Sequence record: OZ035849
DNA: 64,000 nucleotides
Source: Escherichia phage vB_Eco_BGP
Reading direction: 5' to 3' (one strand)
Part shown: positions 1,107 to 60,981 of the stretch, in pieces
Layout: every line of letters begins with the position of its first letter
How positions within the stretch are numbered: position 1 is the stretch's first letter
Translations under genes and position numbers: made by a program
The notes under the pieces: model-generated
The model's input: the letters and a program-made list of their open reading frames with translations, nothing else
Told to the model about the DNA's origin: nothing
The model's database searches: none

Positions 1107-1303
1107 ATTAACCCAACTAAAGCAAATGCTAAATCTACGAATGTATCAAGAGTAACTACTGGAATACTAACGCCATGAGCAATAGCAACTGGCGATAAAA
1201 CAAAATTCCAAAGTAAAATTCCTACCATAGCAGAAATAGTAAAAGCTATACGTTTTTTATTACCTTTTATGGCATTAACAAGTGCCATTAATTTTTGTAC
1301 CAT
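1103..1303 (-). CDS. hypothetical small membrane protein (66 aa)
   Basis: Minus-strand ORF, basic N-terminus then about 45 hydrophobic residues; strong SD AAGGAGG 4 nt before ATG; stop overlaps gene 61 stop; only ORF in a 296-bp gap. Confidence 0.45.
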   Translation of the reverse strand: MVQKLMALVNAIKGNKKRIAFTISAMVGILLWNFVLSPVAIAHGVSIPVVTLDTFVDLAFALVGLI

Positions 1304-6125: not shown

Positions 6126-6155
6126 GTTTACTTTCCTTTCTAACGATGATATGAT
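6126..6155 (+). promoter_or_regulatory. T4-type early promoter
   Basis: GTTTAC 6126-6131, TATGAT 6150-6155. Confidence 0.6.
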
Positions 6156-11094: not shown

Positions 11095-11124
11095 GTTTAC
11101 TTCCTCGGTTAGTTGTGGTATTAT
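11095..11124 (+). promoter_or_regulatory. T4-type early promoter
   Basis: GTTTAC 11095-11100, TATTAT 11119-11124. Confidence 0.6.
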
Positions 11125-11151: not shown

Positions 11152-11655
11152 ATGAAAATTTATCGTGTTGAATCATCGTTTAGTATTCTTAATAATGAAG
11201 ATGCTATAACAATACGTCGAAATCTTTGTGTTCAAATAACGCCGTACAGGAGTATAATAGATTCATGGAGCGAAGAGTGGTTATTACACGTAGGTTATGA
11301 CAGACCTAATTTTATGCATCATAGTAATGATAACAAAAGAATTCCTCTTCCGCGCGAAGACAAATTATTAGTTAAAAATGCTAATATAGCAATTAATACT
11401 AACTTTGAGAAAGAAGAATATGTAGGCGTAGATCATTATATTCCTGGATGGTTTATAGCTCTTTATCATTTTGCTTTCGCTAGCGAATATGATATGATGA
11501 GATGGTTCACACGAGAAGAGCGGGAAGAATTATCTTCTAAAGGATTTTATCTCGCTGTATACGAAGTTCCTGAAGATGAAGTTATCATTGGTGGGCACCA
11601 AGTAATGTTCCGCAAATCGCATGCTGAACTCGTAGATTTTATTGAAATGAGATAA
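11152..11655 (+). CDS. motB: MotB-like protein
   Basis: About 167 aa from ATG 11152 (SD GAGGA); position after dexA as in T4; name by synteny. Confidence 0.5.
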   Translation: MKIYRVESSFSILNNEDAITIRRNLCVQITPYRSIIDSWSEEWLLHVGYDRPNFMHHSNDNKRIPLPREDKLLVKNANIAINTNFEKEEYVGVDHYIPGWFIALYHFAFASEYDMMRWFTREEREELSSKGFYLAVYEVPEDEVIIGGHQVMFRKSHAELVDFIEMR

Positions 11656-20782: not shown

Positions 20783-20812
20783 GTTTACATACCACAAGGA
20801 CCGTGGTACTAT
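20783..20812 (+). promoter_or_regulatory. T4-type early promoter
   Basis: GTTTAC 20783-20788, TACTAT 20807-20812. Confidence 0.65.
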
Positions 20813-56426: not shown

Positions 56427-56456
56427 GTTTACTTTACGGTAGAGTTGTGATATTAT
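56427..56456 (+). promoter_or_regulatory. T4-type early promoter with inverted repeat flanking the -10
   Basis: GTTTAC 56427-56432, TATTAT 56451-56456; GGTAGAG (56438-44) / CTCTACC (56459-65). Confidence 0.6.
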
Positions 56457-56486
56457 AGCTCTACCAAAACAAATGAGGAAATTGAA

Positions 56487-57014
56487 ATGAGCGAATGGTT
56501 TGAAGAAGATAAGGTTTATCGCTTTAAAGCTGGATATAAAGATATTTTTAATGAAACTTGCGGGGCTAATAAACGAATTGCCCAGTTTATTGGGGAAAAT
56601 TCATTTAAAGTAAAAATAGATCCTGCGAAAAATGTTATTAGCATTAAACGCGAAATTGATGATTGTTGGTATAAAGCTGTTGATGTAATGGGCGAATCTT
56701 ATAAAGTTAGCCCGTTATTTTCAATTGCTTATATGTTAGAATATTCTTTTTTCGAAGAAGTTCAAAAAGATGATTCTGTCAGTAAATTTGAAATTAAAAC
56801 TGATAAAGAAATTAAGTGGAAAGTAGTAGGTATTACTGGTTGTATGTTTTATATCTATGCTCAAACTGATACGAAGGAAGAAGCTAAAAAGAAAGCTCTA
56901 GAATATCTTGAAGAGTATGAAGAAGGCCCGGTAATGATTACTCAAGATGCTGAATTAGTTTCTGTCAAATTAGTTAAAAACGTTGAAAGTAAGGAGCTGG
57001 GATCAACATGCTAA
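56487..57014 (+). CDS. hypothetical protein (175 aa)
   Basis: ORF with SD GAGGAAA. Confidence 0.5.
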   Translation: MSEWFEEDKVYRFKAGYKDIFNETCGANKRIAQFIGENSFKVKIDPAKNVISIKREIDDCWYKAVDVMGESYKVSPLFSIAYMLEYSFFEEVQKDDSVSKFEIKTDKEIKWKVVGITGCMFYIYAQTDTKEEAKKKALEYLEEYEEGPVMITQDAELVSVKLVKNVESKELGSTC

Positions 57015-59888: not shown

Positions 59889-60065
59889 ATGGCAAAACAA
59901 GCTAAAGCAAAGAAAGCAGTTGAAAAGAAAGTTGGTGATTCTAAACGCGCTGGCTACAAGCGTGGGTCGAACTCTCGTATCAATCAAACTGTTGAGAAGA
60001 TCATGCGCCGAGCACGTGCGGTTCTTCGAGATGATGCTTCTCGTTTTGGTAAGCAGAAAGCATAA
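59889..60065 (+). CDS. hypothetical basic protein (58 aa)
   Basis: ATG 59889; Lys/Arg-rich (track ORF begins at 59847). Confidence 0.45.
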   Translation: MAKQAKAKKAVEKKVGDSKRAGYKRGSNSRINQTVEKIMRRARAVLRDDASRFGKQKA

Positions 60066-60070
60066 GTTGA

Positions 60071-60095
60071 GGACTCCTTCGGGAGTCCTTTTTTT
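60071..60095 (+). terminator. rho-independent terminator (GGACTCC-UUCG-GGAGUCC, T7)
   Basis: Hairpin identical to the one at 3990-4007. Confidence 0.8.
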
Positions 60096-60119
60096 ATTTT
60101 CCAAAGATTGCATAAAGTT

Positions 60120-60149
60120 GTTTACAGTATGGTTCCTTTGTGATAGTAT
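60120..60149 (+). promoter_or_regulatory. T4-type early promoter
   Basis: GTTTAC 60120-60125, TAGTAT 60144-60149. Confidence 0.6.
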
Positions 60150-60176
60150 TATCTTACACAAACAAAGGAGAATAAA

Positions 60177-60509
60177 ATGAAAACGATTAATCTGAACGCT
60201 ACAGTTAAAACTAAATGCTTCAATGGTAAATATGATGAAACTATGTGGTTCTTAATGGCAGTTGAAGGTGATATCATTGAAGTAGAAACAACAGAAGGTA
60301 TGGGAACAGATTTCACCTTTACAATTCAAGTTCATAATTTCTTTACTGGTTGGATTTATGAATTGAATACAGTAATCGTTGGAAAAATTGAACAAAATGA
60401 ATTAGGTGAATGGTATTATGTTACAGCTCGCCAACGTGCCGAACGCTTAATTGAGAAGATGAAAAAAGTTGGTAAACTTGACATGCAGCATTGGAAAGTA
60501 GTAAAATAA
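60177..60509 (+). CDS. hypothetical protein (110 aa)
   Basis: SD AAGGAG; ORF. Confidence 0.5.
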   Translation: MKTINLNATVKTKCFNGKYDETMWFLMAVEGDIIEVETTEGMGTDFTFTIQVHNFFTGWIYELNTVIVGKIEQNELGEWYYVTARQRAERLIEKMKKVGKLDMQHWKVVK

Positions 60510-60511
60510 TT

Positions 60512-60540
60512 GTTTACTTTGGTACAGGACATGATATTAT
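60512..60540 (+). promoter_or_regulatory. T4-type early promoter with inverted repeat flanking the -10
   Basis: GTTTAC 60512-60517, TATTAT 60535-60540; GGTACAGG (60521-28) / CCTGTACC (60544-51). Confidence 0.6.
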
Positions 60541-60576
60541 ATACCTGTACCGCAATTAAACATCTTGGAGAATAAA

Positions 60577-60942
60577 ATGAACTACATTAACTTTGAACGT
60601 AAATATGTTTCTAATGGTATTGCAGGTTCTATTGATACCATCTGCCTTTGGAAACATCAAAATGGATCAGTATGCGAAATCGAACAGTATATGACTCCTA
60701 ACTACGTTTATATGCGATTTGAAAACGGTATCACGGTTTCAATCACGATGGAAGGTTCCAACTTTAAAATCGCTCTGGATGATGATTTCCGTCAACGTGA
60801 TTTAGGGACTCATCCTTGCTGGAATGGTGCTAATCGTAAACTCTTAGTTAAAACTTGGATTCGTCATATTCTGAGTAACAAAGCTAAACCTGAGCACTTG
60901 GAAGCAATCTTTGATGTAGTTCTTAACGAATTTGATATTTAA
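60577..60942 (+). CDS. hypothetical protein (121 aa)
   Basis: ATG 60577 after SD GGAGAA. Confidence 0.5.
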   Translation: MNYINFERKYVSNGIAGSIDTICLWKHQNGSVCEIEQYMTPNYVYMRFENGITVSITMEGSNFKIALDDDFRQRDLGTHPCWNGANRKLLVKTWIRHILSNKAKPEHLEAIFDVVLNEFDI

Positions 60943-60981
60943 AATAAATGAGGGGCTTCGGCCCCTATTGAGGAAAATATT

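Follow-up and report, generated by a model that had tools for sequence, protein, structure and literature searches.

Covarying arms and a strand bias point to a read-through-specific RNA helix around the -10 element of the T4-type early promoter of gene 30.7

In Escherichia phage vB_Eco_BGP (sequence record OZ035849), of which we analysed one strand of a 64,000-nucleotide (nt) stretch (the window), a perfect inverted repeat brackets the -10 element of the early promoter of gene 30.7 (P30.7). The repeat is probably a selected RNA helix of the PeSL type, in which an intergenic early promoter is combined with a stem-loop, and it would form only in RNA that reads through from upstream. The role that we propose for it, as a boundary and stabilising structure between two cistrons, is advanced tentatively; helix and role taken together make up the explanation that we favour overall, with some reserve. 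The window belongs to a Tequatrovirus with 99.7% identity to phage vB_EcoM_Lutter, and early transcription runs along its plus strand via pseT - cd.x - cd - 31 - rIII - 30.9 ... 30. The elements of the site are listed below in window coordinates.

60490 to 60511, plus strand: A/T-rich stretch that resembles an UP element by its sequence, with aaagtagtaaaataatt at 60492-60508
60512 to 60517, plus strand: -35 element GTTTAC, identical in T4 and part of the only exact GTTTAC-N17-TAnnAT match
60521 to 60528, plus strand: left arm GGTACAGG, inside the spacer between -35 and -10, beginning 3 nt past GTTTAC
60529 to 60543, plus strand: 15-nt loop containing the TGn of an extended -10 (TG at 60532-33) and the -10 TATTAT (60535-40)
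60544 to 60551, plus strand: right arm CCTGTACC, which includes the predicted transcription start
60511 to 60562, plus strand: extended imperfect hairpin of the read-through RNA, made up of an outer helix, TGTTTA/TAAACA, and the core stem
60567 to 60577, plus strand: Shine-Dalgarno sequence (SD) and RegB/S1 site GGAGAATAAAA, 4 nt past the hairpin base, with GGAG at 60567-70
60177 to 60509, plus strand: gene 30.8, the upstream cistron (Pfam Phage_30_8, E 5.7e-60), stop codon TAA at 60507-09
60577 to 60942, plus strand: gene 30.7, the downstream cistron (Pfam Phage_T4_Gp30_7, E 4.9e-53; T4 annotation), ATG at 60577

A preliminary description of this DNA, made from the sequence alone, had reported an 8-base-pair (bp) inverted repeat around a TATTAT hexamer and had called the site a promoter. 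The sequence bears this out: the two arms are 100% complementary and 15 nt apart, TATTAT lies between them, and the site is a full T4-type early promoter. Such promoters have been described as being of the UP/-35/TGn/-10 type (PMC2988021), and P30.7 has the GTTTAC -35, a spacer in the range of 16-18 nt, the TGn and a TAnnAT -10, together with the UP-like A-rich region and a position and orientation just 5' of an early gene that bears an SD. Its sequence agrees with the reported early motif TGTG(A/G)TA(C/T)(A/T)AT, promoters are annotated in the Lutter record at the equivalents of 60512-60540 and 56428-56457, and T4 has the same repeat at P30.7 with one difference in the loop. Early 30.7 mRNA is present 2 min after infection (PMC9409239). 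As a promoter, P30.7 is the ordinary, already known sigma-70-type early promoter of T4 gene 30.7.

We compared 47 regions upstream of 30.7 (35 distinct) from a phage collection and from IMG/VR, where the loci were found by a protein-guided search; the generic anchor GGAGAAYAAAATGAAC gave mostly unrelated contigs. The arms are identical in Tequatro-, Mosig-, Dhaka- and Gaprivervirus, four genera in which the loop outside the TGn and -10, the 5' untranslated region (5'UTR) and the upstream 30.8 allele (37% amino acid identity) differ. More distant genera carry five other, unrelated arm sequences at the same place, still paired and still enclosing the -10: GGTGAGAGTC/GACTCTCACC in Winklervirus, GGTGTAAGAGTA/TACTCTTACACC in a group of Klebsiella phages, TTGGGTGGT.../...ACCACCCAA in Jiaodavirus, CTCCGTTGTAT/ATACAACGGAG in the Karam-/Gelderlandvirus group, and GCTGATTGAGTGT/ACACTCAATCAGC in a further group. 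Three compensatory double changes set apart the arms of one member of the Karamvirus-type class (CTCCGAGGTTT/AAACCTCGGAG; locus L164). The left arm begins exactly 3 nt past GTTTAC in all six arm classes, and on an alignment anchored in this way 96.4% of the cells are paired, versus 30-45% when the partner is slid. All eight basal pairs have changed on both sides, and the covariation score is 1.07, compared with 0.11-0.23 for slid and 0.25 for shuffled partners (0/500 shuffles as high). The preliminary description had named loss of the repeats in relatives as grounds for doubt; the repeat is kept, as a structure. The outer helix is poorly conserved outside Tequatrovirus. The orthologues of the neighbouring promoter P30.8, tried as a second covariation family, proved uninformative, their arms being invariant.

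These comparisons bear directly on whether the repeat has a function of its own, or whether it arose by chance or as a by-product of recombination or slippage between paralogous promoter cassettes. Repeats of 8 bp are common in a 64-kb AT-rich genome: a perfect stem of at least 8 bp brackets a hexamer in this geometry at ~1% of arbitrary genome positions, so a single such case is weak evidence, and the cassettes are indeed paralogous and do recombine. Stems are nonetheless enriched at promoters. Among the 18 GTTTAC-type promoters of the window, two have stems of at least 8 bp (0.08-0.17 expected; P 0.003-0.013) and six have stems of at least 6 bp (1.2-1.4 expected; P ~0.002 or less), and the 8-bp cases vanish when the bracketed hexamer is slid off the -10. 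Loop and flanks vary around arms that do not, pairing is preserved in six independent arm solutions, and the two near-identical cassettes of phage JD18 share a right arm while the complementary spacer is found only in the P30.7 copy. On these sequences, a perfect partner for a fixed 8-mer within ~60 nt in six independent lineages is not chance. Conservation and covariation in relatives rule chance out. We regard the absence of a function of its own as extremely unlikely.

The predicted folds and the pattern of variation both point to RNA. The extended hairpin at 60511-60562 folds with -16.3 kcal/mol (z-score -3.4; 0/200 dinucleotide shuffles as stable) and the core stem alone with -12.3 kcal/mol (z -4.0), and the z-scores of the P30.7 RNA fold lie between -3.4 and -6.4 in all genera. 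Clean single-base arm variants were found in five classes, one in each (loci L138, L153, L157-9, L160 and L162), and each of the five replaces a Watson-Crick pair by G.U on the plus strand, while A.C and transversions do not occur among them; we left L155 uncounted, as a rearrangement of its right arm re-pairs the changed left-arm base in a new register. Across 16 independent promoter hairpins the plus-strand fold is the more stable in 14 (p 0.01 versus a 57% background), and the mean difference between plus and minus folds is -4.5 kcal/mol versus -0.9 in the background (p 0.007), significance being computed against the genome background, in which random segments favour the plus strand in 57-61% of cases. 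A search of 60500-60600 with Rfam gave no family match at E up to 1.

This strand bias fits a sense-strand RNA helix and argues against both a cruciform and a palindromic protein site. A structure in the DNA, either a cruciform or a hairpin of the non-template strand, could tune melting, supercoiling sensitivity or the shut-off of early promoters, the mechanism of which is unexplained according to reviews. It would place the -10 single-stranded in a loop, and a hairpin of the plus, non-template strand would be compatible with the bias, G.T being partly tolerated in DNA hairpins. A cruciform, however, requires both strands to pair, whereas every variant gives G.T on the plus strand, with A.C on the opposite strand, and minus-strand folds average 4.5 kcal/mol worse. 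The open complex melts only from ~-11 to +2, which excludes the arms, and many sister hairpins reach an SD 30-45 nt downstream of the -10, which suits RNA and not promoter melting. We judge a DNA structure to be improbable.

The preliminary description had also compared the site with a second promoter in the window, and had proposed for the two a common regulator or a structural role.

56427 to 56465, plus strand: companion early promoter (T4 Pe133295, between cd.3 and cd.2), with the same architecture and other arms

Here GTTTAC (56427-32) is followed by the arms GGTAGAG (56438-44) and CTCTACC (56459-65) around TATTAT (56451-56), and the RNA folds with -16.3 kcal/mol (z -4.0) into a 12-bp stem with three G.U pairs; the minus strand reaches -9.2 kcal/mol. 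The layouts are alike, although the geometry is not exactly the same as had been claimed, and the layout is not special to these two promoters, as 14 of the window's 18 early promoters have the -10 enclosed in a helix of at least five pairs. A palindromic operator, bound by a dimeric phage or host protein that co-regulates both promoters, would account for a perfect palindrome overlapping the -10 with arms invariant across four genera. The outer GGTA...TACC is common to both promoters, and the literature postulates an unidentified factor for early-promoter shut-off. A shared operator would, however, have the same half-site at the co-regulated promoters and a sequence conserved in orthologues, and we found neither: the two promoters have different arms, and arms vary among the other structured promoters as well; the octamer CCTGTACC has no exact match in the 64 kb beyond its own two arms; and six unrelated arm classes, with compensatory changes, occur among the orthologues. 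Distances from arm to -10 vary among promoters, and the G.U variation is strand-asymmetric. Six arm classes that keep their pairing, together with a G.U bias to one strand, are the signature of a single-stranded nucleic-acid helix and not of a palindromic protein site. The structural half of the earlier proposal thus stands and the common regulator does not; we give an operator next to no credence.

The T4 record (NC_000866) notes for Pe133295 a 14-nt 'inverted complement' correction at 133300-133313 (11301-11314 of the T4 locus L002; window 56445-56458), and the corrected segment coincides exactly with the loop that the arms GGTAGAG and CTCTACC enclose. An invertible promoter was considered, and no IMG/VR contig with an inverted loop at Pe133295 or P30.7 was found in a scan that required an asymmetric -35 flank, as a perfect palindrome matches itself on the opposite strand. 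The note in the T4 record probably reflects an old read error at the palindrome and not a switch.

Returning to the RNA helix, which transcripts would fold depends on where they begin, and the nearest source of read-through RNA is the promoter of gene 30.8.

60120 to 60170, plus strand: neighbouring early promoter P30.8, the nearest read-through source, with GTTTAC at 60120-25 and the -10 TAGTAT at 60144-49

Judged from the position of the -10, transcription from P30.7 would start at ~60545-60549, 5-9 nt past the -10 and inside the right arm, while the left arm lies in the -35/-10 spacer, as expected where only longer transcripts fold. With such a start, RNA begun at P30.7 would lack the left arm and stay unfolded; it is predicted to be unusually open (z +1.7). 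RNA arriving from P30.8 at 60120, or from farther promoters including mapped middle promoters, would hold both arms and fold. The mapped middle promoters P31 and Pcd lie farther upstream, and a canonical terminator at 60069-60090 precedes P30.8.

In such long RNAs the stem-loop would begin 2 nt after the 30.8 stop codon and end 4 nt before a single-stranded 30.7 ribosome-binding and RegB site. The 11-mer at 60567-77 is an exact copy of the T4 RegB/S1 consensus GGAGAAUAAAA, a site that must be single-stranded (PMC1702504), and RegB cleavage of 30.7 mRNA at this GGAG has been reported (PMC9409239). In our computations the site is single-stranded in both RNA forms, and opening the region from SD to AUG costs 0.9 kcal/mol in read-through RNA versus 1.5 in the promoter's own RNA (a difference in free energy, ddG, of -0.6). 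We suggest that the hairpin acts as an intercistronic boundary in long RNAs, where it could give the 30.8 message a stable 3'-proximal structure, chiefly after RegB has cut the adjacent GGAG, and could keep the 30.7 initiation and RegB site open whatever lies upstream; the same cassettes also serve as recombination joints. As the hairpin leaves the SD of P30.7 exposed, a boundary role is the most likely one.

The exposed SD also distinguishes P30.7 from the translational gates of T4 genes e, soc, 49, I-TevI/II/III, segB and mobE (PMC3014915, PMC2988022). As in these, the promoter lies in DNA that encodes the 5' arm of a helix, so that long transcripts fold and transcripts from the internal promoter lack that arm; they differ in having late or middle promoters and a 3' arm that contains the SD or AUG, whereas P30.7 is early and its SD is free. 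Were P30.7 a gate of this kind, the hairpin would block ribosomes on read-through RNA and 30.7 would be translated only from its own promoter's transcripts. The geometry is proven for the other T4 genes, and gating is predicted at P30.8, at four other promoters of the window, and at the 30.7 promoter of Winklervirus, of the Karam-/Gelderlandvirus class and of class F. Of the occluding type are P30.8 and, in Karam-, Gelderland- and Winklervirus, the promoter of 30.7; the computed occlusion of the SD in these is absent at P30.7 of the window. Here and in Mosig-, Dhaka- and Jiaodavirus, by contrast, the SD-AUG region is equally or more open in read-through RNA (ddG -0.2 to -1.0), the stem stops 4 nt short of GGAG, and a hairpin beside but not over a ribosome binding site is without established effect (the seg43 case). 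We consider a gate at P30.7 very unlikely.

A stronger contender is an attenuator or terminator, in which the stem-loop stops or reduces RNA polymerase coming from upstream and so insulates each gene, as the authors of the PeSL work proposed. When one stem-loop of phi1, PeSL211/210, was inserted between a promoter and lacZ, it reportedly cut expression as much as rrnB T1 did (Arbiol et al. 2010, PMC2839356). Like an intrinsic terminator, the P30.7 hairpin stands immediately downstream of a gene, beginning right after the 30.8 stop codon; it folds only in read-through RNA, the substrate of a terminator, and the six strongest hairpins of the window have no canonical terminator upstream. An intrinsic terminator, however, has a GC-rich stem, a short loop and a U-tract, and the P30.7 stem has G-C in only 5/8 pairs, a 15-nt loop and GCAATTAAAC after it. 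In none of the six arm classes is the stem followed by a U-run (GCAAUUAAAC, AACAAGGAG, AAACAG and so on). Our terminator scan skips the hairpin yet calls the real terminator at 60069-90, and P30.8 has both a canonical upstream terminator and a hairpin, the trend with upstream terminators not being significant. The published test concerned one GC-rich phi1 stem only, and the label 'effective terminator' is not supported by the sequence of P30.7. We regard attenuation as unlikely. The sole Rfam match of the region, to the Rhizobiales sRNA Atu_C8 at 60021-60104, is below threshold, with 27 bits against a gathering score of 50; it spans the 30.9 terminator and almost certainly reflects terminator-like structure and nothing more.

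The RNA helix of P30.7 corresponds most closely to the PeSLs (Arbiol et al. 2010, PMC2839356; Comeau et al. 2014, PMC4122927), which are described as an intergenic early promoter with a stem-loop, placed between the stop codon of a small gene and the SD/ATG of the next, stems in which G-T pairs were noted, and many paralogous copies per genome at junctions of insertion, deletion or replacement. In phi1 and RB49 the stems lie mostly between -35 and -10 or overlap the -10 (PMC2839356, PMC4122927). At P30.7 an early promoter shares one intergenic element with a stem-loop, the window has several related copies near small genes of unknown function (18 GTTTAC promoters, with shared 5'UTR boxes), and such junctions are represented by locus L161, phage SH-2 and a 175-amino-acid open reading frame (ORF), described below. 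For the T4/PST pair the stems were placed 'just upstream' of the promoter and an AGNA...TCNT motif was given for them, whereas the P30.7 stem brackets the -10; stems of the P30.7 type are also AT-richer and lack polyG/polyC and a U-run. Covariation, strand bias and a split into SD-occluding and non-occluding stems are not reported in the portions of the PeSL papers that we consulted, and no later work on PeSLs was found in the literature searched. The hairpin is most likely a well-supported element of the PeSL kind, previously only partly described in T4-like phages.

Hairpins that stabilise messages offer a second comparison. REP-type 3' barriers in Escherichia coli operons and the intercistronic C(UUCG)G hairpins of T4 are stabilising hairpins. 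They resemble the P30.7 element in being stable stem-loops without a U-run just past a stop codon in polycistronic RNA, and differ from it in having no promoter overlap; stabilisation by the P30.7 stem is putative. Structured UUCG stem-loops in T4 intergenic RNA have been mentioned (PMC1702504). One such tetraloop hairpin, GGGGC-UUCG-GCCCC, lies at 60951-60966 (hairpin 60952-65) between 30.7 and 30.6, directly before the 30.6 SD; it has no T-run on the plus strand and is terminator-like on the minus strand. The same UUCG motif stands between two genes of JD18 (locus L184, ~1150-1170, minus strand).

Several points weigh against a selected helix with a boundary role. The evidence from strand bias is modest, with five variants and a genome-wide background that itself favours the plus strand; the altered arm of L155 has undergone a complex rearrangement, and in the Karamvirus-type class the minus strand gives the slightly better fold. 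The eight-pair alignment leans to structure, the right arm having been placed by the fold. In-silico shuffling of either arm raises the cost of opening the SD by just 0.5-0.9 kcal/mol, and the suggestion that the hairpin keeps the site open is accordingly the weak part of the boundary reading, resting on modelled folds. Hairpins are not significantly stronger where an upstream terminator is lacking (p ~0.09). That the helix forms in vivo is likewise a prediction from folding, and 30.8 mRNA stability would have to depend on the stem, a dependence that we infer.

Structure around the -10 recurs among the early promoters of the window. Segments from -35 to ATG fold with z below -2 at 11 of the 18; among random 60-mers 7% do so, and among starts of genes that lack an early promoter 11% (p ~2e-5 and 5e-5, respectively). 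In read-through RNA only, the SD-AUG region is predicted to be strongly occluded at five of the 18 (1348, 6126, 11095, 21289 and P30.8 at 60120; +6.8 to +14.5 kcal/mol); the occluding helix encloses the -10 and includes the SD in four, and at 6126 it is a separate hairpin downstream of the -10. At 1348, 11095 and 21289 the -35/-10 spacer pairs with the downstream SD region, the folds at 11095 and 21289 having z-scores of ~-6.3 to -6.4. P30.8 has the arms TCCTTTGT (60134-41) and ACAAAGGA (60162-69) in an 8-9 bp helix whose right arm includes the 30.8 SD, which is also a consensus RegB site, GGAGAATAAAA (60167-77), and SD-AUG opening costs +10.7 kcal/mol in read-through versus own-promoter RNA. 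For the 30.7 promoter the corresponding values in Winklervirus, the Karam-/Gelderlandvirus class and class F are +3.6 to +10.2 kcal/mol.

These observations allow a broader and still more tentative proposal, namely that T4-type early promoters as a class lie within RNA helices with the 5' arm in the -35/-10 spacer, so that each early gene would have an open form of RNA from its own promoter and a folded read-through form. The folded form would hide the ribosome or RegB site (at about a third of the promoters here) or cap the upstream message (as at P30.7). If true, this would be a genome-wide mark on RNA of which promoter made it; it could explain why the synthesis of immediate-early proteins stops within minutes despite read-through and middle-mode transcripts crossing the same genes, and it would explain the conserved spacer sequences of early promoters. 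Such a genome-wide pattern would connect the layout of promoters with post-transcriptional control, namely of message boundaries and of access for ribosomes and RegB, in the best-studied lytic phage.

For P30.7 itself, reading the repeat as a selected RNA structure instead of a site for a regulator would remove a tempting wrong lead on the shut-off of T4 early promoters. The idea of the PeSL gains evolutionary evidence, in that the arms covary over six classes and the bias between strands points to RNA, and the label 'terminator' does not fit its T-even versions. In the engineering of T4-like therapeutic phages, cargo placed beside such cassettes would alter the form of RNA that expresses a gene.

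The cassettes are also places of rearrangement. Near-identical sequence downstream of the -10 is common to the promoters at 20783, 21289, 24760 and 41997 (also 24431 and 42710), with the shared boxes TACTATACAACTATCA(A/G)CTACGGAG or TACTATTACCCTATCAA, which points to paralogous cassettes of promoter and 5'UTR. L161, a Jiaodavirus-like contig from IMG/VR, consists of the P30.8 cassette of JD18 fused to the 30.7 ATG with the loss of two intervening genes: its positions 483-603 correspond to 525-640 and 1560-1625 of the JD18 locus, L184, and join the P30.8 spacer and 5'UTR to the 30.7 ATG. Its sequence suggests that tandem promoter cassettes recombined and the genes between them were deleted; a reading of L161 as a decayed stem behind a terminator was rejected, as it carries the P30.8 cassette fused to 30.7. 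In Shigella phage SH-2 (L008, PQ642267; 380-490), a Tequatrovirus and the only clear mosaic, a Mosigvirus-type 30.8 allele stands before a T4-type P30.7 and 30.7, and the switch in similarity falls at the promoter. The start of homology at the -35 was also considered as proof of a foreign upstream gene, and this was rejected, the upstream gene being a diverged 30.8 allele.

At the companion promoter, the 175-amino-acid ORF (56487-57014), without a Pfam match, lies between the SD of the cassette and cd.2. T4 lacks this ORF, and there the same cassette and SD lead straight into cd.2; the 3' junction of the ORF is the cd.2 start codon. The 142-kb record PV654520.1, entitled 'Pseudomonas phage vB_PSGBLB0006' with P. 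aeruginosa as host, encodes a gp30.7 100% identical to that of the window; the match is surprising for a Tequatrovirus gene and may reflect an issue of labelling or contamination.

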